IMG/VR virus record: IMGVR_UViG_3300009873_000010
Span: 7,212-71,211 of that record
DNA from: a virus
Lineage: Duplodnaviria > Caudoviricetes
Reading direction: 5' to 3' (one strand)
Length of the DNA: 64,000 nucleotides
Position 1 is the stretch's first letter. Each line of letters begins with the position of its first letter. Under the pieces are notes generated by a model, which searched no databases, was not told the DNA's origin, and was given only the letters and a program-made list of their open reading frames with translations. The translations under genes were made by a program, and so were the position numbers. Shown one piece after another: positions 19,375 through 42,204 of the stretch.

Positions 19375-19408
19375 GTGAGCTCACGCAAGTGGGCTCGCTT
19401 TATTCTTT
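19375..19408 (+). terminator. Intrinsic terminator
   Basis: GTGAGCTCAC-gcaa-GTGGGCTCGC then TTTATTCTTT. Confidence 0.8.
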
Positions 19409-19969: not shown

Positions 19970-20692
19970 ATGTACCATAAAGACGCTGTTTCTTTTACAG
20001 ACGCTTACATTTGGTTGATGAAGCGCATACTCAAGTCTGGCACTGATGTAAATTGCAGACTTGGTGGCATGAAGGAAGTGCTCGGCGCGTCATATACTCT
20101 GCAGTATTGTAGCAATCTTGCGCACGCACAGCCAGATAGCAAGCTAACTAAGCGCAATTTCAAGTATGATTTTGCAATTAAGCATTTTGAATGGCTTATG
20201 GCAGGCAAGACAGACATGTCTGAGCTGCTTGGCACAAATGCAAATGCTGCAAATTTCATGCCAGGTGACGAAATTCCGGAAGGCTTTACAACGGCTTATG
20301 GCCCTCGCATAACTCGCCAGTTGCCTGGCATAATTAAATTGCTTACTGACGAGTCGAACACAAGGCGCGCAGTTATGCATATACTTGAAGAGAAAGATAA
20401 GCTGATATGGGACTTGGACACAAAGCTGGAGTACCCGTGCACTAGCCATCTGCATTTCTTTGTGCGCGGCGATTTCTTACACACAATAGTTGTAATGCGC
20501 TCCAATAATGTTACAACTACTATGTGTTACGATGTGTCTGCATTTTGGTTGCTTAGCAACTATCTTTGCTATGTGCTACAATTGCGCAATGGCAACTTTA
20601 CAATGCAAATAGGCTCAGCGCACATACTGTATTCTGAGCGAGAGCTCGCTAGTGCAATTATTGACCAAGCAAAAACTCTACAACTATGTTGA
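19970..20692 (+). CDS. Thymidylate-synthase-fold dCMP-modifying enzyme (putative dCMP hydroxylase or hydroxymethylase)
   Basis: AYGPR, DESNTRRA, YPCT catalytic Cys, MRSNN, GSAHI; Asp at the ThyA Asn177 position. Confidence 0.8.
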   Translation: MYHKDAVSFTDAYIWLMKRILKSGTDVNCRLGGMKEVLGASYTLQYCSNLAHAQPDSKLTKRNFKYDFAIKHFEWLMAGKTDMSELLGTNANAANFMPGDEIPEGFTTAYGPRITRQLPGIIKLLTDESNTRRAVMHILEEKDKLIWDLDTKLEYPCTSHLHFFVRGDFLHTIVVMRSNNVTTTMCYDVSAFWLLSNYLCYVLQLRNGNFTMQIGSAHILYSERELASAIIDQAKTLQLC

Positions 20693-21390
20693 GCAAACTA
20701 TGTGTTAATTCTATGGAGTACAAAGGCAAGCTTGTTGAATATTACATGCGGCCTGGCACCTCTGATAAGTTCGTAATGGAAGAGCAAGACTACGAGTGCA
20801 TAAAGCTAAATAAAGATGATGTTTGGCTTGACATCGGAGCTAACATAGGTGCTTTTCCAATAAAGTATGCGAAGCATGTAGGGCACATTTTGTGTTTTGA
20901 GCCAAATCGTGAAAATTATGGAGTGCTTCTGCATAATCTTGAGCACCACAGATTGCTCAATGAAGCAAATGTATATTCATATAACAGTGCAGTAATTGCA
21001 ACAGGCACAGCTTTTCAGCCTTTGTATGTAAACAAAGGTGAGAATAAAGGTAAGCACAGTCTGCAGCCTGGCATTGCGAACGTGCGACCTACTTATAAGG
21101 AGCTTGTGCATTGCATACATTACAGCACTCTAATGGATGCAGACGGAGTAAAGGTGGATATTGAGGGCGGTGAGTACGAGCTACTTAGCCACATGGCTAT
21201 TGTAGGTAAGCTCAATAATACAAAGCAACTTGTGTTTGAGTATCATTACAATCCAGAGTACACAACACAGACACAAGAGCAATTTTTGCGGCTAGAGCAT
21301 ACACTGCGCAATTATGGCAAATTTAGCCATATAGAAATAGTAGCAGAGGACCCTAAGTACAAAACATATATAGTATATTGCCATGCGTAA
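20686..21390 (+). CDS. FkbM-family SAM-dependent methyltransferase
   Basis: WLDIGANIGAF, CFEPNRENY, VKVDIEGGEYELL, LVFEYH. Confidence 0.9.
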   Translation: MLSKLCVNSMEYKGKLVEYYMRPGTSDKFVMEEQDYECIKLNKDDVWLDIGANIGAFPIKYAKHVGHILCFEPNRENYGVLLHNLEHHRLLNEANVYSYNSAVIATGTAFQPLYVNKGENKGKHSLQPGIANVRPTYKELVHCIHYSTLMDADGVKVDIEGGEYELLSHMAIVGKLNNTKQLVFEYHYNPEYTTQTQEQFLRLEHTLRNYGKFSHIEIVAEDPKYKTYIVYCHA

Positions 21391-22480
21391 TTTGCGTACT
21401 ACAATAGGAACTTGCGAGTTCAATATACATAGTTGTGACCCTAGTCTATACAAAGGTGCAACTGGCTTGTTTATACCTGTTTATGGTGCAAGGAGCCATC
21501 TAACTGGTAAATATATGCTTGCTATGGAAGGCAACTTTTGGCTGTCTCTGTATAAGGCAGCTAACATGAACCTTGGCAAGCTCTATCTAACAATACCTAA
21601 GGGCGAGTTCTTGGAGCCTGGCTATATGCAATATATAGTGGACCATGTAATGCCTAAGCTGCCTTTTGAGCTAGTACTTGTGCCTACATACGGTTATGGC
21701 TCAAATGCATATGCTACTCGTGGCAATATGCAAGAGTGGCATGAGTTTGTTGCTGAGGAAAAGTTAATTTTGGAAGCTATTGACGTGCTTTTGTATGCTC
21801 CACCAGTGCTTGGTAGAATATTCGATAGTACGTATTGCAGAGCTGCAATGACATGTGTCATAGTTTACTGGGCTTATGCTATAGCGTCTCAAAATTACAG
21901 ACCTACGTTCTTTGAGGACTTTGCTGAGTATGACAAGTACAACTACAATCATTACAATATGTGGGTAGCAACTGTAGATCAATATGAGCGCTACCAAGAT
22001 GCCCGCATGGAAAACAATTTGTTTAATATAGAGTTATATGAGCAATTGTTCTTGCAGCATCTTAGGCAATCAGACAAAGTGGCAGGGCTCTATAAGCGTG
22101 TGTTTGTGCCTTTCCGCCAATCTGCAGATGGCTACAATGTTCAAGGCATTTTCAATGCTCTGCATACTATTTACCAGCATGATAACATTGAATTTGAATT
22201 GCTCTATACAGCATACAATGATGTCATTCTGGAATTGCCACATGTGCCTGCGTTTAAAGTAGATGGCAACAAAGAATCCTATGTACGCATATTGGAGAAG
22301 CGGCCTATAGTGCCTTTGCTAGCAGACATAGACGGCATATTTCATTTGAGCATATTTGAGCATGCCTACCATAGATGCGAGCTATTGATTGTAGAGAACT
22401 CTTATGTTAAAGCACAGCATACTTTGCCTAAGACTTATACGCAAGAAAATTTACATAATGCATTAAAAAGTATGCTATAA
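21383..22480 (+). CDS. Putative GT-B DNA glycosyltransferase
   Basis: 365 aa; RVFVPFR and SIFEHAY-type C-terminal Rossmann pattern; coupled to the TS homologue and FkbM (family call is inference). Confidence 0.45.
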   Translation: MRNLRTTIGTCEFNIHSCDPSLYKGATGLFIPVYGARSHLTGKYMLAMEGNFWLSLYKAANMNLGKLYLTIPKGEFLEPGYMQYIVDHVMPKLPFELVLVPTYGYGSNAYATRGNMQEWHEFVAEEKLILEAIDVLLYAPPVLGRIFDSTYCRAAMTCVIVYWAYAIASQNYRPTFFEDFAEYDKYNYNHYNMWVATVDQYERYQDARMENNLFNIELYEQLFLQHLRQSDKVAGLYKRVFVPFRQSADGYNVQGIFNALHTIYQHDNIEFELLYTAYNDVILELPHVPAFKVDGNKESYVRILEKRPIVPLLADIDGIFHLSIFEHAYHRCELLIVENSYVKAQHTLPKTYTQENLHNALKSML

Positions 22481-22538
22481 ATTTCACTTTTTAATTAATT
22501 ATTTCTATCTTTGAATAAATGATAAAAGATAGAAAACT

Positions 22539-22862
22539 ATGGTAAAGCTTGGCAAATCAGACAAAGTACAATTGCTAGTAGAGCTTAGCTCCGGCAACAA
22601 GAAACTCAAATTCTTTGTTACACGTGGCCGCACTTACCGTGCAGACCTTACAATAAGGCCAGAAGGAGCATACTATAAAATCCTGGGTACAGAAACCTCG
22701 CCTGGTCGCAAAAGCACAATCAACGAAACAATAGAGTACGACGATGTCGTTGCATGGCTGGATGAGTTCTGCAACGACACAACTGCAATTGTGCATTATA
22801 CAATTCTGAATAAAAACATACGCAGACATGGCAGACAAGAACAAAGTAGTAAAAGTAGCTAG
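22539..22862 (+). CDS. Hypothetical protein
   Basis: ORF after the promoter at 22506. Confidence 0.65.
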   Translation: MVKLGKSDKVQLLVELSSGNKKLKFFVTRGRTYRADLTIRPEGAYYKILGTETSPGRKSTINETIEYDDVVAWLDEFCNDTTAIVHYTILNKNIRRHGRQEQSSKSS

Positions 22863-23049
22863 AAAAGGTGAAGCGGGTACAGGCAAGCGCCGTTACAACA
22901 AAGCGGGCATTAGAGTACCTAGGCCGGACAAAAAAGACGGCAAAGCAATAGCAAAGGTTATTGCGCAGCACGACACAGGCAAGAAGCAAGCGCCTGCTAA
23001 AATAGTGCTAAAGCAACATCCAGATGGCACAATTGAACGCGTAGACTAA
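22828..23049 (+). CDS. Small basic hypothetical protein
   Basis: K/R-rich 73 aa; TAATG coupling to the kinase. Confidence 0.6.
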   Translation: MADKNKVVKVARKGEAGTGKRRYNKAGIRVPRPDKKDGKAIAKVIAQHDTGKKQAPAKIVLKQHPDGTIERVD

Positions 23050-23621
23050 TGGCAAAATTGTTTATACTTGACGGGCACAGCAGAACAGGCAAATCAACAG
23101 CAGCGCACGAGGTGTGTAAGCGTAATAAAGATGCACGCCTTGTTGCTCTGCAAGATAAGATGCCAATGCAGATCAGTAATTACTTTGAATATTACACAGG
23201 TTGCATTCACTCTGCACAAGCTTTTCTGAAAAGCTCGCACAAGTACGACATCTACGTAATGGATAGGTCTATTTTCAGCGACTTCATATTCGCGCCTGTT
23301 TTTAATAGGTCTACAATAGTAACTGAAGAATATGCAATTGATTTTGCTTATGAGCATGAGATAGTGTTTATAGGCACTTTTGCTGCATACAATTATTACA
23401 GAAAAACTAATAAGGATTCTTTTGCATACACACCAGAGCAATGGCATAGCATAGCACAGCGCACTCAAGAGCTGATGCGCATACTGGCTTCTAGGCCTAA
23501 CAACTATGTGCAGAGTGTTTATGTGGAGAGTGCCGAAGATGTGCATCGCACAATACAAACTGCACTTGAGCTCTATAAATTCTACTACGATGGCTACGGA
23601 CCGACTTACAGAAATTTTTGA
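23049..23621 (+). CDS. Deoxynucleoside monophosphate kinase (thymidylate-kinase-like)
   Basis: FILDGHSRTGKST P-loop; MDRSIFSDFIF motif. Confidence 0.8.
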   Translation: MAKLFILDGHSRTGKSTAAHEVCKRNKDARLVALQDKMPMQISNYFEYYTGCIHSAQAFLKSSHKYDIYVMDRSIFSDFIFAPVFNRSTIVTEEYAIDFAYEHEIVFIGTFAAYNYYRKTNKDSFAYTPEQWHSIAQRTQELMRILASRPNNYVQSVYVESAEDVHRTIQTALELYKFYYDGYGPTYRNF

Positions 23622-23937
23622 AAGGCAAGCAGCTTTTACAAGCAATTTTCATGATGCTACGCCTAGCGGCATAGACGAATGCGAAGAGCTAACAAAGAAT
23701 TACACAATAATGCTTATAAAAGAGCTGACAGAAGTTGTAGATGAGCTCAATTATAAGCTGCATGCGTCAAAGCGTAATGCTATAAACGTAGTTAATGTGC
23801 ACGAAGAGCTAATGGATGTGCAAAAGTTCCTTATAGTTATGATGCAACTATGGGATATTGACGCAGACAAATTCGTTGAGCTCTTTCATACAAAAAGCAC
23901 TATTGTTGAGCAGCGCTATAAAGACAAACAAAGATGA
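23590..23937 (+). CDS. All-alpha NTP pyrophosphohydrolase (dimeric dUTPase/dCTPase-like)
   Basis: EIFERQ, KELTEVVDE, HEELMDVQKF: ExxE...EExxD motifs. Confidence 0.8.
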   Translation: MATDRLTEIFERQAAFTSNFHDATPSGIDECEELTKNYTIMLIKELTEVVDELNYKLHASKRNAINVVNVHEELMDVQKFLIVMMQLWDIDADKFVELFHTKSTIVEQRYKDKQR

Positions 23938-24173
23938 CTATTAATCTGGAAGAACAATACAAACTATTCTTAAAGCGCATGGCACTTAGTGAGCGGCGCA
24001 TGCATCCTGTGCAGAAACTGCAGCTGAAGCAAACTTTTTATGGTGCTATAGGGCAATTGCTCGTTATTCAGCGAGACGTGTTAAGTGAGTTAGACGAGCA
24101 AACGGCCGTATACGCATTGCAAGACATGATAGAGCAGATAGATGCATTTTTTCAAAATGAGCTAAACAACTGA
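23934..24173 (+). CDS. Hypothetical protein
   Basis: 79-aa ORF, ATGA overlap. Confidence 0.7.
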   Translation: MTINLEEQYKLFLKRMALSERRMHPVQKLQLKQTFYGAIGQLLVIQRDVLSELDEQTAVYALQDMIEQIDAFFQNELNN

Positions 24174-24174
24174 T

Positions 24175-24951
24175 ATGCATATTGTAGGCATAGACTTCAG
24201 CATACTCTTGAATGCAAACTATTATGTAGCTATTAAGTGGGGTGCTCACGAAGACCCTGCTGAAGTTATTAAACTGCTTGAGCGTAGCATAGGCTCTTTG
24301 TCTTTGAGTCTGATGCCCAATCGCATAGTAATGTGTACAGACACTGGGCCATCCTGGAGGCACGACTACATACAAGGCTACAAAGCAGGCAGACCTGAGC
24401 GTAAGGACTTTAGAGATGTTGCAAAGGCTGTTACTGCACATTTCCGCGAGCACTATGGGCTTGTGGAAATAGACACAGCAGAGGCAGACGATATAGCATG
24501 GTGCGTAGCAAAATATGCACGCAGCAAAGGGTACAAGTGCACTCTAGTGTCTGCTGATGCAGACTACGAACAAATGACACTGACCGGCGCAGAGTACTAT
24601 GACTACAGGCAGAAGCGCACTTTAAGCGTAGATGCGTATAGGGCACGCTTCGACAAGCTCATGCAAGGCTGCAAAACAGACGTAGTGCCTTCATTGCTTA
24701 AGCCTAGGTTTAAGCGTGCAGACTATGACAAATTCTACGATACGTATTTGCTTGAAACAGGTGGCAAGCTAATTGAAGGCCAGAAAGAATATGACATAAT
24801 AGAGTATCTACGGCACGATTTGGCATTCTTCGTAGACTTGCCATGTTACTGGGATAATCTGTATACTGTCACTTATAGCAAGTTCGTATATGAGCACACT
24901 GTGCCCGATGTTTACGAAGCAATAAATAATTCATTGCTAAACTTTTTTTGA
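24175..24951 (+). CDS. 5'-3' exonuclease / flap endonuclease (T4 RNase H-like)
   Basis: IVGID, CTD..SWRH...YKAGR, EADD, SADADYEQM. Confidence 0.88.
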   Translation: MHIVGIDFSILLNANYYVAIKWGAHEDPAEVIKLLERSIGSLSLSLMPNRIVMCTDTGPSWRHDYIQGYKAGRPERKDFRDVAKAVTAHFREHYGLVEIDTAEADDIAWCVAKYARSKGYKCTLVSADADYEQMTLTGAEYYDYRQKRTLSVDAYRARFDKLMQGCKTDVVPSLLKPRFKRADYDKFYDTYLLETGGKLIEGQKEYDIIEYLRHDLAFFVDLPCYWDNLYTVTYSKFVYEHTVPDVYEAINNSLLNFF

Positions 24952-25017
24952 AAATAGTATGCTAAAAATTTCACATTTTAGTATAAATAGTTTATCTTTG
25001 AATTAAGAAATGAAGAA

Positions 25018-25359
25018 ATGAACATCGACGATTTTGTGAGCATACAATATGAAGATGACATACTACGTATTTCATCTTACGAAACAGATGTAGAGTATCC
25101 GTTTGAGCTAATAGGCGACGATACCTATGTTGATCTCACCGAAGCAGACGAAGTTCACTTAACTAAGGAAGAAGCTATTCATCGTATACTGGACAAGACA
25201 GAGTTCCGTATATACTATGATGCTTACTATCTAACTAAGCCAGAGTTCGATGGCTTGCACAGAATGGCAATTGATGCGTACTATACATATAGGTCGCAAT
25301 TGCAATACATTCCAAGGTCTTTAATAACACAGCATAAATTCTTTAACCGCAAAACTTAA
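25018..25359 (+). CDS. Hypothetical protein
   Basis: Acidic 113-aa ORF after the promoter at 24993. Confidence 0.7.
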   Translation: MNIDDFVSIQYEDDILRISSYETDVEYPFELIGDDTYVDLTEADEVHLTKEEAIHRILDKTEFRIYYDAYYLTKPEFDGLHRMAIDAYYTYRSQLQYIPRSLITQHKFFNRKT

Positions 25360-25363
25360 CAAC

Positions 25364-26119
25364 ATGGCAAATTATGCTAGCTTTGCAAGCGGGAAGCTCA
25401 TCGGTATGCTCGATTCAGAACTGAAGGCAGTCAACGATGAAACCGCACGCACATTTAACGATGAAGCATGTAAGGAAATGGTCCTTGTGCTTCTGAACCG
25501 TGGCAAGATCACCGAACAGATGCGTGGCCAGTACGCAGCCTGGATTCCTTCCGACGAAGAGCTCGCAGAAGCTAAAGCCGAGAAGAAAACGACCAAGGCA
25601 AAGGCCGAGAAGGCGCCGAAAGAGCCCAAGCCTAAGAAAGAGGTCAAGCCGAAAGAGCCTACCGGCAATGCTCGCTGGGGCATCGACCCTGCCCAGAACA
25701 AGCGCGATCCGCAAGCAGGCGACATCGTTCTTTGCCCACCTGCAGGCAATGCCAAGGTGCGTGAAGCACAGAACTACGAAGTTCTGCCCTACGGCAGCGA
25801 CGACGAGCCGGATGCCAAGCACGTCGAAGGCGAAGGCTGGTGGCTGAAAGTTCTGGTCGAATCAGAAACCGGCAACTGGAAGTGGAAGAAGCGCGACAAC
25901 GCCATGATTACCACTTACGTGGAGGACCGTAACCCGGACGAAGTCTACCATATCCGTGTAGAGCGCGAGAAGGCTGAAGCGAAGGCGGCTGAAGCGAAGG
26001 CGAAAGCAGACAAGGAGGCCAAGGAAGCCGAAAAAGCTGCTGAAGCGGCTGCAAAGGCTGATAAGGCTGAAAAGAAGGGCAAGAAAGCTGAGGCTGAAGC
26101 ACCAGCAGAGGAAGCGTAG
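25364..26119 (+). CDS. Lys/Ala/Glu-rich protein, probably abundant
   Basis: KAEKAPKEPKPKKE and AKAAEAKAKA tracts; GC-richer codons; followed by a hairpin. Confidence 0.75.
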   Translation: MANYASFASGKLIGMLDSELKAVNDETARTFNDEACKEMVLVLLNRGKITEQMRGQYAAWIPSDEELAEAKAEKKTTKAKAEKAPKEPKPKKEVKPKEPTGNARWGIDPAQNKRDPQAGDIVLCPPAGNAKVREAQNYEVLPYGSDDEPDAKHVEGEGWWLKVLVESETGNWKWKKRDNAMITTYVEDRNPDEVYHIRVEREKAEAKAAEAKAKADKEAKEAEKAAEAAAKADKAEKKGKKAEAEAPAEEA

Positions 26120-26140
26120 GCTTTTCATCACCGGGCCAGT

Positions 26141-26179
26141 GCAATATGTCCAAGGGCTATATGCCCAAGGGCATATTGC
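26141..26179 (+). terminator. Nested hairpin after 25364-26119
   Basis: GCAATATGTCC-aa-GGGC-tatat-GCCC-aa-GGGCATATTGC; no U-tract. Confidence 0.45.
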
Positions 26180-26200
26180 CACATAATAAAACTTGCAAAC

Positions 26201-27169
26201 ATGAAGTTCTTAGTATTTTCTGACTTACATATACATAATTATAAGCGCTTTGACGATAACGGCTCAAGACTAGACGCTACATTTGAGTGCTTAGGCTTGA
26301 TGTTCGATTATGCAGCTAAGAAAGGCTCGCGGCATATATTGTTTGCAGGCGATTTATATGATCAGCAGCGCGCTTTGCCACATGCTGTAGTTAATGGCAC
26401 TATACGCGCATTTGCCTACCTTTTCGATATTCATCCTGAGATGCAGTTCTATGCTATATCTGGTAACCATGATATGGCAACTAAGAATTTGATACATAAG
26501 CAGGCTGTGTCTGCATTAGAGCATCTTGCAGAAATTTTCGACAACTTTCATCTGTTAGACAATAGATCAGCGAGCATAACGGATAACATTCGTGTGCACG
26601 GTATACCGTATTACGACTACAAAGGCGATTATGAGGCAGCGCTGAAACAGACAATCGCAAGGCTCGCTGACTATGAGTGTATTGACATCTTGCTAATACA
26701 CCAGACTCCAAATTATGGCAATCCTATGATAGCGCACGATGTTGAGCCCTGGGACAATATATACGACTACTTTGATGTAACGTTTTGTGGGCACATACAT
26801 AAGCCTGTAGACATACGTGATGGCTGGTATATCGTAGGTTCTCCAATGCACAGAGATGCTGGCGACATAGGTGATTCAAAGCGTGTGCTACTTTACGACA
26901 CAGAAGCAGGTATTACAGAAATCAGCATGGCTGGTGTGTTTCCTGAATTTAAGAAAGTACCTGCAGAAGAGGCGGGCCTACATGATGGTTACGTTATACC
27001 TATTTACAAAGCAGACGAAGGCTCTCAAGCTTACGATGCACGCTTTGGTGCTGAAGCTAACATTGACGATATACTTGCAGCATACGCAGACTCTATGGGT
27101 CTTGCTAAGGAGTACATAAAGATAGGCACAAAGATATTACACGAAGCTCAAAAACTCACAGAACAATGA
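26201..27169 (+). CDS. sbcD: SbcD/Mre11-like nuclease
   Basis: SDLH, GDLYD, GNHD, GHIH, VGSP. Confidence 0.93.
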   Translation: MKFLVFSDLHIHNYKRFDDNGSRLDATFECLGLMFDYAAKKGSRHILFAGDLYDQQRALPHAVVNGTIRAFAYLFDIHPEMQFYAISGNHDMATKNLIHKQAVSALEHLAEIFDNFHLLDNRSASITDNIRVHGIPYYDYKGDYEAALKQTIARLADYECIDILLIHQTPNYGNPMIAHDVEPWDNIYDYFDVTFCGHIHKPVDIRDGWYIVGSPMHRDAGDIGDSKRVLLYDTEAGITEISMAGVFPEFKKVPAEEAGLHDGYVIPIYKADEGSQAYDARFGAEANIDDILAAYADSMGLAKEYIKIGTKILHEAQKLTEQ

Positions 27170-29055
27170 GGCATGTACAACTAGAATATTTACACATTGA
27201 AGGATTTCGCTCGATAATCGAGCCTAATCGTTTTTCTTTTTCTTCAAATGGTATCTATCAAATTATAGGAAGTAATGGAGCAGGCAAGACCTCTGTCTTT
27301 GAGGCTCTATCCTGGGGCCTTTATGGAAAGAATCTAAAGAATTCGTCTGTCGCAAATTTGCAGACATTTGCGCATTTACAACCTGTCGATTTTAAAGGCA
27401 CAAAAGTACAGATAGGCTTTGCTGTTGATTGCTACAATTACACAGTTGTACGCACAATAGGCTACACAGGCATGGGCAGTGTGCTGGAGTTGTATGAAGA
27501 TGATACGCTGCTTGAAGGCATGCGTAAAAAAGATACGCAGACAAACATTGAAAGCATACTTGGTGTGCCTTATAATATGTTCATAAATACTGTGCTGTTT
27601 GGCCAGCGTATGCTGCGCTTGAGCCAGATGACTGCAGTAGAGCAGCGTACATTCTTTAATCAGATGTTTGAGCTTGACTATCTGAAACATGCTAAAGATA
27701 TTGCAAGGCAGAAATGTGGCGAGCTTGTAAATAAAATAGATGGTGCTAACAACGATATTTTGCATAAGCAAAGGCTGCATGAGGCATTGCAAAGCAGGCT
27801 TGATAGCATAGAACAGTACTATGCGGCTTTTGAAGCAAAAAGGCACGATCGTGTTAAAGCTCTTGAAGCAAAACAAGCAGCAAAGACTGCAGAACTTGCA
27901 GAAGTGCGTGCGGAAAAAAGAGCTTTGACAAAAAAATTCAATGCTTTGCCACAACCAGATACAACTGCTGCATTAGAGTCAGAGCTTGAGGCGCATAAAG
28001 TTAAGTTACGCGAGGTTTGCGAGAATATTGCCTCGTGTAATGCAACAGAAAAAGAGGAAAACGGCAAAGCTAATCGAGCCGATAAAAGAATTGCAGCGCT
28101 AGAGCTGCAAATTGCAGAATATCCTGAAAACTGCCATGCATGTGGCCAAGAGCTAGATAAAGTAGCAAGAGCAACTGCATTAGAGCGTTTAGCTACAGAG
28201 ATAGCTGGGCACAAAGAAATTCTGGAAGCTACTAAGGATAAACTATTGCAATTAGCTGTTGTGCGTGCAGACTATATTGACGAGCAGGAGTTTTGCGATG
28301 CATTAATAAAGGATTTGCAAGGCAAGATAGCAGAGCATAAAAAATCGCGAGCAGAATTAAATGAGCTTGCGTATCAAATTAAGTCTTGCGAGCCAAAGAT
28401 GAAAGCAATACAAGAGCGCATAGATGAACTCGACGAAGAGATAAAGGCAGCGTGGAATGAGAAGCCTGTAAACCAAGGCGAAGATGCTATAAAAGAAGAG
28501 CAAGCAACTGTATATCAAGATATTGCAAAGCTGCAAAAAGAAGTGCAAACTGACGCAGGTGTACTAAAAGTGTACGATTGGTGGAGTCGCGTAGGCTTTG
28601 GAGCGAATGGCATTGCAATGTATATAATACAGAATAGGTTAGCGCTGCTAAATCAGCACATTGCGGAATTTGCACAGAAATTAGGCATAAGCGTAATGAT
28701 AGACGTAAACTTGGATGGCGCTACAAAAAATTTCGAGATTCACTGCTTATTGCATGGCGAATATATTAGCTACGACGATCTATCTGGTGGAGAAAAGACG
28801 CGCGTAGACTTAGCATTAACATTTGGGCTTTACAGATTACTTTCAAGCTCAGAAGTATTTATAAATGCGCTTATACTTGATGAAGCTTTTGCAGGCCTAG
28901 ATGAACAGGGCCTTGATAGTGCCTATGAAATGCTGTCTGCTTTTGCAGAAGATCGTGGTGTATACATTGTAACTTTCAACCCGCTCTTCAATCCTGTGCT
29001 GGCAAAAGAAATTGAGATACAGAAAACACATATAGGCACAATAATAATACAATGA
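27166..29055 (+). CDS. sbcC: SbcC/Rad50-like SMC ATPase
   Basis: GSNGAGKT, coiled coil with CHACG zinc hook, LSGGE, ILDE. Confidence 0.95.
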   Translation: MRHVQLEYLHIEGFRSIIEPNRFSFSSNGIYQIIGSNGAGKTSVFEALSWGLYGKNLKNSSVANLQTFAHLQPVDFKGTKVQIGFAVDCYNYTVVRTIGYTGMGSVLELYEDDTLLEGMRKKDTQTNIESILGVPYNMFINTVLFGQRMLRLSQMTAVEQRTFFNQMFELDYLKHAKDIARQKCGELVNKIDGANNDILHKQRLHEALQSRLDSIEQYYAAFEAKRHDRVKALEAKQAAKTAELAEVRAEKRALTKKFNALPQPDTTAALESELEAHKVKLREVCENIASCNATEKEENGKANRADKRIAALELQIAEYPENCHACGQELDKVARATALERLATEIAGHKEILEATKDKLLQLAVVRADYIDEQEFCDALIKDLQGKIAEHKKSRAELNELAYQIKSCEPKMKAIQERIDELDEEIKAAWNEKPVNQGEDAIKEEQATVYQDIAKLQKEVQTDAGVLKVYDWWSRVGFGANGIAMYIIQNRLALLNQHIAEFAQKLGISVMIDVNLDGATKNFEIHCLLHGEYISYDDLSGGEKTRVDLALTFGLYRLLSSSEVFINALILDEAFAGLDEQGLDSAYEMLSAFAEDRGVYIVTFNPLFNPVLAKEIEIQKTHIGTIIIQ

Positions 29056-29363
29056 AAAATCATACGAAAGTATATCTATTAGCTGTTTATGGCGAGCTAA
29101 CTCATAATTGCACATGCGAGATATGCTATGTTACTGAGCATAAAGTTGTGCGTGCTGTAGATGTGCATCATATTAATCCACGTGGCATGGGTGGCTCTAA
29201 GGATAAAGACTACATAGAGAATCTAATGGGCCTGTGCAGAGCATGCCATTTAGACTGCGAAGCTGCACAATACTCTAAGCAATTCCAGGAAGCATTCCAC
29301 AAAGACTTTTTAGACCAAAAGTACATAGACTATGACATCACAAAATTTTCTCACATCGAATGA
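29052..29363 (+). CDS. HNH endonuclease
   Basis: CEIC...DVHHINPRGMGG...NLMGLCRACH. Confidence 0.88.
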   Translation: MKNHTKVYLLAVYGELTHNCTCEICYVTEHKVVRAVDVHHINPRGMGGSKDKDYIENLMGLCRACHLDCEAAQYSKQFQEAFHKDFLDQKYIDYDITKFSHIE

Positions 29364-30774
29364 CATCAATGTATATCAGCTACCTGATGTAAAAGAGCCT
29401 ACTGTAAATAAGTACCGTGAGCTAAACAGGCCGGCTATTTCATGGTACACAGAGGGCCAACGTGCTATAGTTCATGGAGCGCAAGAGTATATACGCACAA
29501 CAGACGAATATGCATATATGCTCGTTACAGGCAGTGCTGGAACAGGTAAGACAACAGCTGCAGCGGGCATGATAGAGTCGCTATTATGGACGAACATGAG
29601 CTTGCGTGTTGCATTAGTTGCACCAACACATAGAGCAGTGCAGGTGCTAGAAACTAAAATACCATTTCGGCATAGGACTATGCAATTTATGACTGTGCAT
29701 AGCCTTTTGGGTATCGAAGGAGTTGCAGACGAAGCGAACATACGCTTTGAGTTAGTTGACGAGAACAAGGTAAAACTCAGCGGATATGATGTAGTGCTTT
29801 GTGACGAAGGCTCTATGCTGCAAAGAGACCTGCATTTGCTACTCATGAAATTTAAAGGCAGGTGTAAGCTAATCTATTTTGCAGATATTAAGCAATTACC
29901 GCCTGTAAATGAAACAACTGCACCTATATTTGAAAATCGTGTAGATGTATTGCACTTCGAGCTTACTGAAGTTCTACGGCAAGCAGATGGCAGCCCTATA
30001 ATAAAGCTAAGCAATTTTGTAGCGCAGCGCCGTAGTTTTATTAGTCTTGAAAGCCATGAGGACATGTTCACAGAGCATGGTGATGGTGTGCTACAATTAC
30101 ATTCCTCTTTGCCAGAAGAGCGTGAGCTTGCGTATGAGCTAATAGATCATTATTTTACATCTGAAAACTTCAAAAACAATCCAGACTTTGCAAAAGCTAT
30201 AAGCTATACACGCAAAAGTGCAGAACTTATGAATGCATATATACGTAAAGCTCTATATGGTGATTATTGTGAGAAGATAGTTACCGGCGAAAAGCTTATA
30301 GCTGATGGGCCTATAATGGATAAGGACATAATTCTTGTGCCTAATAATGTGCCATTTGTAGTGCGATACTATACAACTGAATATGAGCACTTGCCAAATG
30401 GCGATAAGCTAAAGTACTACGCATGCAGATGTGATGTAGGCGGCGAATATGATGCAGATGTGCGTATACTTCACGAGGACTCGCAAGCAGTATATACGCA
30501 ATATTTGGAGCTAGCATTAAAATATGCTAAGCAATTCAAGCGCGGCATGAAAGAGTACGGCAAAGCGTGGGGCCAATACTATGAGCTGAAAGAATATTTT
30601 GCAAGTGTTAATTACAATTATGCATTAACAGTGCACAAGAGCCAGGGCTCAACATTTGACAATACATTTGTGCTTACTACTGATTTTAAATATTGCAGAA
30701 GTAAAGAAGTTCGCTGGAAACTGTATTATACAGCATTTACGCGGGCAGCCCATAAGCTATTTATCATTTTATAA
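29332..30774 (+). CDS. dda: Dda/RecD-like SF1B helicase
   Basis: GSAGTGKTT, CDEGSM, EVLRQ, YALTVHKSQGST, YTAFTRA. Confidence 0.92.
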   Translation: MTSQNFLTSNDINVYQLPDVKEPTVNKYRELNRPAISWYTEGQRAIVHGAQEYIRTTDEYAYMLVTGSAGTGKTTAAAGMIESLLWTNMSLRVALVAPTHRAVQVLETKIPFRHRTMQFMTVHSLLGIEGVADEANIRFELVDENKVKLSGYDVVLCDEGSMLQRDLHLLLMKFKGRCKLIYFADIKQLPPVNETTAPIFENRVDVLHFELTEVLRQADGSPIIKLSNFVAQRRSFISLESHEDMFTEHGDGVLQLHSSLPEERELAYELIDHYFTSENFKNNPDFAKAISYTRKSAELMNAYIRKALYGDYCEKIVTGEKLIADGPIMDKDIILVPNNVPFVVRYYTTEYEHLPNGDKLKYYACRCDVGGEYDADVRILHEDSQAVYTQYLELALKYAKQFKRGMKEYGKAWGQYYELKEYFASVNYNYALTVHKSQGSTFDNTFVLTTDFKYCRSKEVRWKLYYTAFTRAAHKLFIIL

Positions 30775-30914
30775 CATAGTTGTACTTTTGGTAGTGGGCA
30801 TGTGCATTTGCATGTGTCCACTTTTTTACAATTATTGTTATCTCTATATTGACTTTTTGAATCTTTATTCATATCTTTAATATTATTAATCAGAGAGATA
30901 AAAAATCTAAGGGT

Positions 30915-31172
30915 ATGAGTAATAAATCAGATCAAGAGTTACTGCGTAATTTGGAAAGCATGGACATGACAGTGCATAAATACACTGACCCAACAGACGT
31001 GGGCTTTTTGAGCGAATTTCGAGTCATCATGAATGCAATCGGCTACGACGAAGGCAGACCATTAAGCATTGTCGAAAAAGCTGAGTATCTTGTGAAGTTT
31101 ACGCAAGAGCTTGCAGACAAAGGCTCGATAACTAATGGCAGAATGTTAGAAATAGCAATTGTGGGTATATAA
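30915..31172 (+). CDS. Hypothetical protein
   Basis: Own promoter variant (30872) and AATCTAAG leader. Confidence 0.7.
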   Translation: MSNKSDQELLRNLESMDMTVHKYTDPTDVGFLSEFRVIMNAIGYDEGRPLSIVEKAEYLVKFTQELADKGSITNGRMLEIAIVGI

Positions 31173-31183
31173 AAACTGCAAAC

Positions 31184-31378
31184 ATGAATCCAAAATTTCA
31201 CGGCGGCTATGAGCTGCTACTCTACAAAGGCCAATTTGTGTTTATAGTTAGCTATGACACAACTAATGCAAACACAGTTATTGTTGAGAACTACGATCAG
31301 CAGCCTTTCGAGCCTTACGAGGTAAATTACAAAGAGCTAGACGTGCCTTCAGCGGACGAAATGGCAGAGATCGAGTAA
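31184..31378 (+). CDS. Hypothetical protein
   Basis: 64-aa ORF. Confidence 0.6.
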   Translation: MNPKFHGGYELLLYKGQFVFIVSYDTTNANTVIVENYDQQPFEPYEVNYKELDVPSADEMAEIE

Positions 31379-31456
31379 AATACATTCTTAGATTTTTTGA
31401 TTGATTAAGTAGTGCACCGCCTATTGGCAGTGCACTTACTTTCTAATTACAACAGT

Positions 31457-32701
31457 ATGCTAGAGTTAATGACAGGTGCAATTTTCACCGACAACCCTAC
31501 GGATTACCCAGAGCAGATAAAAAAATTGAACTCTGACAAAAATAAGTTCGGCAGAGTGCATGAGCTCTATGGCTCTATGCGCGCGTCTGCAATAGGCATA
31601 CCTACAGCAAGGCCGGACTTCCGTTTGCCTGATATTTCGCGAGCCTACTTACAAAGTTACATTGAGAGTTGTCATGCTAATGGGCTTATATTCAATTATA
31701 CTGCTAATGGTCCATTGCTTGGCAATTTGGAAGATATTGATGTGGGCTACGCTAAGCTAATAACCGAACTACAATGGTTAGAGAGCATAGGCGTAGACCG
31801 CATTACAGTTTCGCATCCGCTTGTTATGCAAGCAGTTTGCAAATACACTAGTATGCCGATTGAAGTATCGACAATACTCAATGTATATCAAGCTAATGGC
31901 ATTCGCCAGCTAAAAGAGCAATATCCGAATATAAATAAAGTGTGCATGTCCATAGACCATAATAGGCATCTTGGTACAGTGCGCGCATTACAGCATACTT
32001 GTCTACAATTGGGCATACAGCTAGAAATAATAGCAACTGAGTTTTGCAAGATAGGTACAGGTAATTGCTCACAATTACATCGAGCTCAGTGTTACAATAT
32101 GCACAGCTACAATATGCCGGAAAATGTAGCACGCAAAGGTATAAACTCTGATGGTAGCAAACAACACAGAGACGTAAAAGGCTATCCCTGGAGCGGCAGC
32201 ACAGGTTGCATATTCAATCGAGCAAAAGACAGTGTTGCATGGCTTATGAGCAATACAATATGGCCCAATGACATATTGCGATTTAGCGCGCTGACAAATG
32301 TTGTAAATTTCAAAATAACTACAAGGACAGCTCCTGCTGAATACGCTTTGCAGCTAGCTAGCTTTTATCTTGATGTGAACTATGATGGGCCTTTGGCTGG
32401 CTTATGGCTGCAATTACCTGCGTCTTTGCTGTCTGCACGAGACAAGTTTGATAAAATACAAGGCTCGTTTGTAGACAAAGTGCCTTATTTCTGTGAAGAT
32501 TTGGCTAAACGTAGAACAGTGCGCACTAAGCTCCAAGGCACAATAATTGAGCAAAGCATGAATTTTATGGACTTGTTTTTCGAGTTCCCGTATATAGATT
32601 GGCATCAGATCAATTGGGTAGATAAGCCTACAGATGAATGTGATTTTTACGAGTGCAATTGGCCTTATCTATGGCATAATTACTTACAAACTTTAATATA
32701 A
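31457..32701 (+). CDS. Peptidase U32-family protein (putative Fe-S hydroxylase)
   Basis: GVDRITVSHP, IEVSTI, LEIIATEFCKIGTGNCSQLHRAQCY with E/C/C/C ligand-like pattern; start probably ATG 31457. Confidence 0.72.
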   Translation: MLELMTGAIFTDNPTDYPEQIKKLNSDKNKFGRVHELYGSMRASAIGIPTARPDFRLPDISRAYLQSYIESCHANGLIFNYTANGPLLGNLEDIDVGYAKLITELQWLESIGVDRITVSHPLVMQAVCKYTSMPIEVSTILNVYQANGIRQLKEQYPNINKVCMSIDHNRHLGTVRALQHTCLQLGIQLEIIATEFCKIGTGNCSQLHRAQCYNMHSYNMPENVARKGINSDGSKQHRDVKGYPWSGSTGCIFNRAKDSVAWLMSNTIWPNDILRFSALTNVVNFKITTRTAPAEYALQLASFYLDVNYDGPLAGLWLQLPASLLSARDKFDKIQGSFVDKVPYFCEDLAKRRTVRTKLQGTIIEQSMNFMDLFFEFPYIDWHQINWVDKPTDECDFYECNWPYLWHNYLQTLI

Positions 32702-41499: not shown

Positions 41500-41741
41500 A
41501 TACATGGTTCACTGCAGCATATAGCTCATATACGTTTTCATTTGAGCTACAATTGCCGCTAGAACATAAGCTGTATAATTTGCTATGTGAGAAAACACCT
41601 TTAAGGCATAAAGACTTCGAGTCTTTAGGCTTGAGTGTTAACACAGAGCTAGCTATAATCGAAATCATGCGGCTTGGCGCTGAGCTTAAGACTGCATTTG
41701 CTTCAGATCATTTAACACTTACAATTGAGTACAATGGCTAA
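41415..41741 (+). CDS. Hypothetical protein (start uncertain)
   Basis: MANYLRAH... in frame with track ORF 41316. Confidence 0.55.
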   Translation: MANYLRAHTNISSEALRVLCKLHERDDINTWFTAAYSSYTFSFELQLPLEHKLYNLLCEKTPLRHKDFESLGLSVNTELAIIEIMRLGAELKTAFASDHLTLTIEYNG

Positions 41742-42204
41742 CGAAAATTCAAAGCATGCTGGGTTCGAGCCGCGTCCGCACGCAAAAAAGTTCGACGGGC
41801 TGCGAGAGTACATTGCGTTCACTCGCACTACAGCTATCTACCCTCGCAAGATGGCATTTCTGGACGATGTTGTGTCTACAGAACCTGGTTTTACTACTGG
41901 GCCCATGGACGGTGAGCATCTGTTCGTAGTCGACTTTGAAGCGGCTTACGCAACTCTGGGCCTTGTCGGCGAAGCTGGCGAGATTGCGAACAAAGTGAAG
42001 AAAGTATATCGTGACCATGATGGCATGATACCACCTGTGCTAGCAGAGGAGCTGGTACGTGAGTGTGGCGATATGTTCTATTATTTTGCACGCGTTCTGG
42101 ACTGGCTTGGAGTAGACCCGCAGGAAGTTATTGACCAGAACATCAGCAAGCTGACGTCTCGCAAAGAGCGCAACGTGCTTAAAGGCTCCGGTGACACACG
42201 TTAA
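41734..42204 (+). CDS. mazG: MazG-like nucleotide pyrophosphohydrolase
   Basis: LGLVGEAGEIANKVKK, ECGDMFYY, NISKL.SRKERNVLKGSGD. Confidence 0.9.
   Translation: MANENSKHAGFEPRPHAKKFDGLREYIAFTRTTAIYPRKMAFLDDVVSTEPGFTTGPMDGEHLFVVDFEAAYATLGLVGEAGEIANKVKKVYRDHDGMIPPVLAEELVRECGDMFYYFARVLDWLGVDPQEVIDQNISKLTSRKERNVLKGSGDTR

Follow-up and report, generated by a model that had tools for sequence, protein, structure and literature searches.

A 64,000-nucleotide stretch of a tailed-phage genome (IMG/VR record IMGVR_UViG_3300009873_000010, bases 7212–71211; hereafter the window) contains a cassette encoding a thymidylate synthase (TS)-fold enzyme, an FkbM-family methyltransferase, a GT-B glycosyltransferase (GT), a nucleotide kinase and an all-alpha pyrophosphatase, and, at a distance, a gene for a U32-family Fe-S protein. 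Judged from sequence comparison, the core of this gene set is a distant version of the glycosyl-5-hydroxycytosine system published in 2025–2026 for phages RB69, DLP3 and RL38JI (PMC13326640), with a conserved FkbM gene added to it. Since the published 5-hydroxycytosine (5hoC) gene set is accompanied by this extra conserved gene, the 5hoC modification of the phage DNA probably takes a new, methylated form. A preliminary description of the same DNA had presented the six genes as a candidate new pathway; with the core already published, the locus is instead a variant of a known one. All six genes are open reading frames (ORFs) on the plus strand (Table 1).

The chemistry proposed below is deduced from homology, signature residues, folds and gene linkage, which are themselves directly observed. 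The phage would replace the cytosine of its DNA with a decorated 5hoC. Before replication, the all-alpha pyrophosphatase would lower the dCTP pool, and the TS-fold enzyme would hydroxylate dCMP at C5 with flavin and O2, like its RB69 relatives. The kinase, of the RB69 gp45 type, would help to bring 5-hydroxy-dCMP to the triphosphate, which the phage PolA would incorporate. After replication, the single GT-B enzyme would add one sugar to the 5-hydroxyl from a host nucleoside diphosphate (NDP)-sugar, and FkbM would then O-methylate that sugar, in place of the chain-extending sugar transferases of RB69 and DLP3. The U32 protein would serve as a second hydroxylase, making the same 5-hydroxy base without O2 by using host prephenate. 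This account as a whole, a single host-derived and O-methylated sugar on 5hoC with U32 as a second hydroxylase, is the best explanation of the locus, and we give it a probability of about 0.45.

A cassette related to those of 5-hydroxycytosine phages

RB69 gp48, DLP3 gp80 and nine further TS homologues convert dCMP to 5-hydroxy-dCMP with O2 and flavin (Lee et al., NAR 2026, PMC13326640). The residues diagnostic of these synthases are N177D, L143D or L143E and, uniquely, D169N (PMC13326640), and flavin is present in the crystal structure of the homologue from phage HY126 (He et al., as cited in PMC13326640). The corresponding residues of the window protein were read, in ThyA numbering, from an alignment with E. 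coli ThyA, T4 gp42, RB69 gp48 and the LC53 enzyme. The motif LEYPC supplies L143E and Cys146, the motif MRSNN supplies D169N, the Asp eight residues further on represents N177D, and a His replaces Glu58. The closest solved structures (Protein Data Bank (PDB) entries 9iqu and 9iqc, E-value of 1e-27) are near-identical in sequence to RB69 gp48. In a maximum-likelihood tree of 20 sequences, which includes some long branches, the window protein falls, with support of 100/99, in a clade that contains RB69 gp48 and the enzyme of Thanatos. The other members of this clade are the homologues from LC53, EcS1, Rgz1, Acj9, Tenacibaculum phage PTm1 and Sphingomonas phage PAU, and the sequences of the T4 gp42 type, the 5-hydroxymethyluracil (hmU) type and ThyA fall outside it. 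With the full published signature, the window protein is predicted to be a 5-hydroxy-dCMP synthase, in line with the 5-hydroxy-dCMP product proposed in the preliminary description.

The GT adopts a confidently predicted GT-B fold, and its top PDB matches in a Foldseek search are 3c4q (MshA), 7qsg and 8ixp (LmbT), with an E-value of 1e-7. The same three structures are listed for RB69 gp46:47, DLP3 gp79 and RL38JI gp215/237 (PMC13326640); the transfer of sugar to 5hoC by RB69 gp46:47 and DLP3 gp79 is itself a prediction (Table 1 of PMC13326640). Relatives of the window GT are confined to 59 representative clusters. It is 23% identical, over 85% of the query, to the product of the gene directly after the TS gene in LC53 (tblastn E-values of 1e-6 to 7.5e-11), the CHI14 gene is homologous too, and the family profile matches the TS-neighbour gene of Acj9 at 1.5e-56. 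The gene order TS-(FkbM)-GT-...-kinase is maintained. The protein, noted earlier only as GT-like, is a homologue of the sugar transferase that adjoins the TS gene in known 5hoC phages. Genes of the NTP_transferase, epimerase, GT1 and GT2 families are absent from the complete genome, as are the arabinose genes of RB69. Sugar activation is missing, the sugar transferase stands alone, and the place that chain-extending transferases take in RB69 and DLP3 is filled by a methyltransferase. Because the phage carries no sugar-activation genes, the donor would be an NDP-sugar of the host.

The kinase had been identified earlier as a dNMP kinase, and the assignment agrees with its Walker A motif and its homology to RB69 gp45; the Walker A and DR motifs are common to RB69 gp45 and the LC53, Thanatos and Rgz1 proteins. 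Its position after the GT gene is conserved in two diverged viral loci, L007 and L008. The frame of the pyrophosphatase is open from 23506, and the ATG at 23590 fits the 115-residue orthologue in L008, which carries the family on record. The protein has an ExxE(12–28)ExxD metal motif that is conserved in three orthologues, and its profile matches iMazG (PDB entry 2q73, E-value of 0.002).

The FkbM protein scores well above the family cut-offs (38.9 bits against 22.7 for PF05050, and 62.2 against 37.7 for TIGR01444). The motifs LDIGANIG, EP and KVDIEGGEYE are retained, and D49, G51, G55, E72 and the D158-E160-G161-E163 motif are invariant among 22 aligned FkbM sequences. The AlphaFold2 model (predicted local distance difference test (pLDDT) of 90.8) has as its top PDB match 2py6, an FkbM. 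The TS and FkbM frames overlap by 7 bases and the FkbM and GT frames by 8 bases; if FkbM instead started at 20713, there would be no overlap between TS and FkbM. A predicted complex of GT and FkbM scored 0.00 and gives no verdict, and the charge and isoelectric point of the two proteins do not discriminate DNA-acting enzymes, the LC53 GT being likewise acidic. Sequence searches of solved structures with FkbM, the U32 protein, the kinase, the pyrophosphatase and the second MazG protein of the genome returned nothing useful.

The block TS-FkbM-GT-kinase-pyrophosphatase is kept in L007 and in L008/L010, at 22–43% identity to the window proteins. A further contig (P0025) has the order PolA-...-TS-FkbM-GT-186aa, that is, TS-FkbM-GT and a kinase-sized gene. 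FkbM adjoins TS in L007, L008 and the P0025 contig. FkbM is the element that is absent from every described 5hoC cassette and conserved in diverged relatives, and in this respect the preliminary description, which had singled it out as an addition to the known gene set, was right.

Two jumbo phages of the hydroxylase clade have other neighbours beside the TS gene. In Sphingomonas phage PAU (L123:3968-8660), a TS with the full 5-hydroxy-dCMP synthase signature lies beside the dTDP-rhamnose genes RmlB, RmlC and RmlA and several unknown genes for proteins of ~390 residues; in Tenacibaculum phage PTm1 (L122:1719-4657), the neighbours of a full-signature TS are a 'guanylyltransferase' and a histidine phosphatase. 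Such arrangements suggest further sugar variants of 5hoC.

The U32 protein and the layouts of hydroxylase genes

The U32 family assignment is sound (29.9 bits against a cut-off of 22.4 for PF01136). The frame is open from a GTG at 31412, and the ATG at 31457 is a plausible start. The protein is 36% identical to the U32 protein of LC53 (E-value of 1e-47), which is the orthologue of RB69 gp50, and eight cysteines are invariant among six phage U32 proteins, including those of the pattern EFC...CS...CY...CI. No match was found to the NCBIfam models of RlhA, TrhP or UbiU/V, which places the window protein on a distant branch. Given that the kinase is a homologue of RB69 gp45 and the U32 protein of RB69 gp50, RB69-like loci do contain a U32 gene and a kinase together with a TS homologue, as the preliminary description stated.

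The same description had implied that the hydroxylating step of the pathway needs the U32 protein. In E. coli, the TS homologue alone makes 5-hydroxy-dCMP with flavin and O2, and DLP3 and RL38JI make 5hoC without a U32 gene (PMC13326640). Hydroxylation therefore does not need U32, and that implication is not sustained. The gene is separated from the cassette by ~9 kb and by a strong terminator-like hairpin (Table 1), and it belongs to a different transcription unit. RB69 gp50 has been labelled a 'sugar or heterocycle reductase' (PMC13326640). By analogy with the cellular enzymes considered below, the phage U32 protein is better read as a parallel, oxygen-independent route of hydroxylation.

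The distribution of phage U32 genes is consistent with this role. In the phage collection, the U32 homologues occur in Straboviridae that have 5hoC cassettes. A CM_2 chorismate mutase directly adjoins the U32 gene in four of the five arabinosyl-5hoC Straboviridae checked, namely LC53 (L009:2802-4312), EcS1, Rgz1 and Thanatos-2, the exception being RB69; the RB69 gp49 protein, encoded in the same slot, has no CM_2 match and does not detectably resemble the LC53 chorismate mutase. When IMG/VR was scanned with a U32 alignment, T4-like loci of the order isomerase-NTP transferase-HAD-U32-CM-TS-GT-kinase and five non-T4 contigs were recovered. Two of the records found (L038:7910-11026 and L040:7888-11026; 48.9 and 49.3 kb, rated 100% and 98% complete) have the order pyrophosphatase-kinase-GT-U32, the GT being of the 5hoC type, and in L040 the gene for PolIII alpha comes next. 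Searches of both whole records found no TS homologue (PF00303 at E ≤ 0.1; our own profile at E ≤ 1) and no TET/JBP, C5-methylase or chorismate mutase gene. A third (L034) has kinase-GT-U32, in which the pyrophosphatase was not detected, as well as Gly_transf_sug and TAGT transferases.

The U32 enzymes RlhA, TrhP and UbiU/V are prephenate-dependent, O2-independent hydroxylases, and each has an O2-dependent analogue. With the TS-less records L038 and L040 set beside the known phages, three layouts exist: TS only (DLP3 and RL38JI), TS and U32 (enterobacterial Straboviridae, Thanatos and this phage), and U32 only. By analogy with the cellular pairs, we infer that such a distribution would be expected if two analogous hydroxylases supplied a single transferase.

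Viral FkbM contexts and alternative readings

Viral FkbM genes occur in several settings. In the isolate-phage collection, a search with the window FkbM found only Pelagibacter phage HTVC112P and Synechococcus phage DSL-LC02, and no 5hoC phage. A gene of the TS superfamily lies no more than 6 kb from FkbM in seven of 80 viral loci; it is of the hmU type in four, of the 5-hydroxymethylcytosine (hmC) type in two and a plain ThyA in one. The FkbM homologues of the hmU-type and hmC-type clusters are ~36% identical to the window FkbM. Among the clusters of L048:4844-8442 and L052:1127-4623 (IMG/VR) and the P0002 contig, the hmU type has the order HMUDK_hel-FkbM-TAGT-TS, and the type assigned by residues to hmC has the order ADDT-HMUDK-FkbM-kinase-TS. 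Viral FkbM genes also lie beside sugar transferases, TAGT in the hmU-type clusters and a GT4 in L003. In the ESM Atlas, a viral cluster of 85 proteins of ~908 residues consists of Glycos_transf_1 and FkbM fusions, and the O-antigen methylase RfbT is among the matches of some viral FkbM clusters. Two genes for proteins of ~370 residues beside the FkbM homologue of L005 were considered as relatives of the window GT and are unrelated to it. In the literature searched, which left many subscription papers uncovered, nothing was found about 5-methoxycytosine, about a part for FkbM in DNA hypermodification, or about U32 or prephenate in phage DNA modification.

If the cassette works as described, the odds that FkbM acts on the sugar are about even. 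Characterised enzymes of the family (FkbM, NoeI and RfbT) methylate sugar or alicyclic hydroxyls. The main competitor is direct methylation of the base on its 5-hydroxyl, either as a nucleotide or in DNA, to give 5-methoxycytosine at some or all sites while the GT serves the rest. This would be a DNA counterpart of the tRNA of B. subtilis, in which 5-hydroxyuridine (ho5U) is O-methylated to 5-methoxyuridine (mo5U) by an operon that includes U32 genes, and it would suit a FkbM gene that follows the TS gene in an overlapping frame. The presence of FkbM near several types of TS in hydroxylated-base clusters likewise means that the hydroxylated base could be the common denominator. Yet every relative of the clade keeps a GT alongside FkbM, and a methylated 5-hydroxyl cannot take a sugar; TrmR, the tRNA enzyme, belongs to a different family from FkbM, and the viral GT-FkbM fusions also speak for a sugar substrate. 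Methylation of the base is on balance unlikely, while retaining real weight. A target outside DNA is a good deal less probable still. The DNA would then carry plain glycosyl-5hoC, as in the known phages, and the substrate of FkbM would lie elsewhere, for example in a protein, a small molecule or a glycan of the host. Viral FkbM genes are indeed common in contexts that lack a TS or GT, such as Pelagibacter phage HTVC112P and a structural-module FkbM-GT4 pair, and 73 of the 80 loci have no TS within 6 kb. Against this stand the placement of FkbM between TS and GT with overlapping frames, which is kept in four diverged genomes, and its recurrence beside three kinds of TS-superfamily base-modifying enzymes.

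Two further alternatives concern the hydroxylases. That the TS homologue is a dCMP hydroxymethylase, with glycosyl-5hmC as the product as in T-even phages, is highly improbable. Database labels of its homologues read 'dCMP hydroxymethylase', and the L007 enzyme retains Asp169 like T4 gp42; the window enzyme, however, has D169N and no Glu58, belongs with verified hydroxylases in the clade that excludes T4 gp42, has its best solved relatives in near-copies of RB69 gp48, and has in HY126 a homologue whose crystal structure, as cited in PMC13326640, contains flavin. For the U32 protein, a role outside DNA modification, on host tRNA, rRNA or quinones or as the sugar or heterocycle reductase of the published RB69 label, is unlikely but carries appreciably more weight. 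The distance from the cassette, the separate transcription unit, the failure to find the gene in the contigs of the relatives and the sufficiency of the TS route, both in E. coli and in DLP3 and RL38JI, all favour it. The occurrence of the phage-collection homologues in Straboviridae with 5hoC cassettes, the U32 gene beside GT and kinase in TS-less phages, the adjacent chorismate mutases and the eight invariant cysteines favour participation in base hydroxylation.

Several observations weigh against the account of an O-methylated sugar on 5hoC with two hydroxylases. The TS of L007 (L007:4045-4758) has the motif MRSND, in which Asp169 is kept, even though it lies in the hydroxylase clade, lacks Glu58 and has L143E and N177D; the D169N rule is thus not absolute in this clade, and the L008 enzyme has MRSNN like that of the window. 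The fold search with FkbM finds, after 2py6, only generic class I methyltransferases and no substrate class. No GT is present among the ORFs scanned in the hmC-type clusters that have ADDT, HMUDK and FkbM, so sugar is not the sole possible target of FkbM. The U32 gene was found neither in L007 nor in 27 kb of the L008 contig; the co-occurrence of all six genes in relatives, proposed earlier as a check, is seen for the five cassette genes in L007 and L008 and, in the P0025 contig, for TS-FkbM-GT with the kinase-sized gene. No chorismate mutase, fused or nearby, was found in this genome. The pyrophosphatase scores 20.2 bits against dUTPase_2, below the cut-off of 22.9, and its specificity for dCTP is a guess: of its earlier description as an all-alpha dNTP pyrophosphatase acting as a dCTPase, the first part agrees with the metal motif, and the second is weak.

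The broadest form of the proposal joins a methyl-ether DNA modification undescribed in any DNA (O-methyl-glycosyl-5-hydroxycytosine or 5-methoxycytosine) to two analogous hydroxylases, the O2/flavin-dependent TS enzyme and an O2-independent, prephenate-dependent U32 enzyme, with U32 as the sole hydroxylase in some ~49-kb phages. Taken jointly, these claims are possible but somewhat doubtful.

Genomic setting and comparison with known systems

The IMG/VR record is 71,211 bp long, has direct terminal repeats and is rated complete. Nearly all window genes lie on the plus strand. The replication module comprises a UvrD-like helicase, a primase-like gene, an SF2 helicase, PolA, a gp32-like single-stranded DNA-binding protein, a FEN nuclease, SbcCD-like proteins and an SF1 helicase; the structural module comprises the terminase, a tape-measure-like protein of 1354 residues and a prohead protease. 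Outside the window, a single ORF of 2175 residues (L011:35-6562) fills nearly all of the 7.2-kb remainder of the genome. The cassette DNA has no DNA-level match among 50,697 phage records, and a locus search with the TS protein alone found no close relative; a 97%-identical variant of the region was found in another sample.

Table 1. Features of the window, numbered from its first base. L007 and L008 are the diverged viral loci described in the text.
Feature	Coordinates	Strand	Size and matches
Terminator-like hairpin upstream of the cassette-holding unit	19375..19398	+	10-bp stem, 6 GC pairs, T-run, intergenic; consensus match only
TS-fold enzyme, predicted flavin/O2-dependent 5-hydroxy-dCMP synthase	19970..20692	+	240 aa; PF00303, 3.8e-13; phrog_160, 1.7e-27
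FkbM-family S-adenosylmethionine (SAM)-dependent methyltransferase	20686..21390	+	234 aa; PF05050, 1.2e-9; TIGR01444, 7e-17; both above cut-offs
GT-B glycosyltransferase, predicted base-proximal 5hoC DNA glycosyltransferase	21383..22480	+	365 aa; no Pfam family; AlphaFold2 pLDDT 93.4
Two small ORFs	22539..23049	+	107 and 73 aa; no family match; no counterpart in L007 or L008
P-loop nucleotide kinase of the RB69 gp45 type, predicted modified-dCMP kinase	23049..23621	+	190 aa; Walker A; phrog_761 'thymidylate kinase', 2.4e-9
All-alpha (MazG/dUTPase_2-like) NTP pyrophosphatase, candidate dCTPase	23590..23937	+	dUTPase_2, 7.7e-4; phrog_173, 1e-5
Terminator-like hairpin between the TS...helicase unit and the U32 unit	30793..30822	+	13-bp stem, 6 GC pairs, T-run, intergenic; consensus match only
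U32-family Fe-S protein, homologue of RB69 gp50, predicted O2-independent pyrimidine C5 hydroxylase	31457..32701	+	PF01136, 29.9 bits (cut-off 22.4); phrog_5757, 1.6e-43
Second MazG-domain pyrophosphatase, directly upstream of the large terminase	41725..42204	+	PF03819, 1.6e-5

The two small ORFs between the GT and kinase genes are probably not part of the pathway, and the second MazG protein is possibly a further dNTP-pool enzyme. Among all gene starts in the window, a Shine-Dalgarno-like motif is present at only 4 of 69. The leaders are often A-rich, of the form CTTTG(A/G)AT...A-rich, with TTTG ~20 nt before the ATG, a Bacteroidota-like expression signal. The host is probably a member of the Bacteroidota, as the preliminary description held; the leaders lacking a Shine-Dalgarno motif fit this host without proving it.

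Glycosyl-5hoC was described only in 2025–2026, in large myoviruses of Proteobacteria, and the locus extends its reach to an unrelated 71-kb phage, probably of Bacteroidota. If the proposal is true, the methyl-capped sugar or the methoxy base would be new DNA chemistry, and it would matter for escape from restriction enzymes, CRISPR and glycan-sensing type IV defence, and also for nanopore basecalling and enzyme tools. The occurrence of FkbM beside TS enzymes of the hmU, hmC and hoC types suggests that phage DNA hypermodification has in FkbM a general tailoring enzyme, as yet unstudied. The three layouts (TS only, TS and U32, U32 only) offer a direct test of an anaerobic route to the hydroxylated base, a question left by RB69 gp50.

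The phages with arabinosyl-5hoC, RB69 (gp45–gp55 and gp3), DLP3, HY126 and LC53 (PMC13326640, and Mahler et al. 2025 as cited there), have a TS with the same 5-hydroxy-dCMP synthase signature as this phage. Their GT-B gene directly follows TS, whereas here it lies past FkbM. Shared with them are the gp45-type kinase, a putative all-alpha pyrophosphatase and the U32 gene, the last of which is present in RB69 and LC53 and not in DLP3. This phage lacks their arabinose-5-phosphate isomerase, NTP-transferase/kinase and HAD phosphatase genes and has one GT only; it has FkbM between TS and GT, no chorismate mutase, and an unlinked U32 gene. Its genome is that of a 71-kb PolA phage with a tape-measure gene rather than of a T4-like myovirus, and identities between the proteins are 21–38%. 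With the Rhizobium phage RL38JI (Pootjesviridae), which has hexosyl-5hoC (PMC13326640), it shares the kinase-GT-TS core, and GT1 of that phage (gp215) and the window GT have the same structural neighbour, LmbT (8ixp). The RL38JI sugar is joined to 5hoC by an ether link (PMC13326640). RL38JI differs from this phage in having three GTs and a UDP-galactopyranose mutase, and neither a methyltransferase nor a U32 gene.

The T4 glucosyl-5hmC system (gp42, gp1, gp56 and the alpha- and beta-GT) follows the same logic: a nucleotide pool is depleted, a TS-fold enzyme modifies dCMP at C5, and the product is phosphorylated, incorporated and, once replication is over, glycosylated. T4 installs a hydroxymethyl group by folate chemistry, with Asp169 and Glu58 kept, whereas a hydroxyl is predicted here; the GT families of T4 differ from the window GT, and the T4 adduct is not methylated. 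In the modification of tRNA to ho5U and mo5U (TrhO or TrhP, and TrmR), as in the systems of RlhA and UbiU/UbiV, a U32 enzyme (in tRNA and rRNA, a pyrimidine-C5 hydroxylase) is paired with an O2-dependent analogue, and in tRNA O-methylation follows, as proposed here; the prephenate dependence of these U32 enzymes matches the chorismate mutase genes beside phage U32 genes. Their substrates are RNA or quinone rather than DNA precursors, and the methyltransferase is of the TrmR type as opposed to the FkbM type of the window. The thymidine hypermodification systems (5-hydroxymethyldeoxyuridine synthase, HMUDK and ADDT/TAGT; PMC8989533) use an hmU base and activation chemistry based on a DNA kinase, unlike the window cassette. 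Clusters of this kind in metagenomic phages include the ~36% identical FkbM genes, for which no role is described in the literature searched, and FkbM is in this way a component common to those clusters and to the predicted 5hoC cassette of the window.

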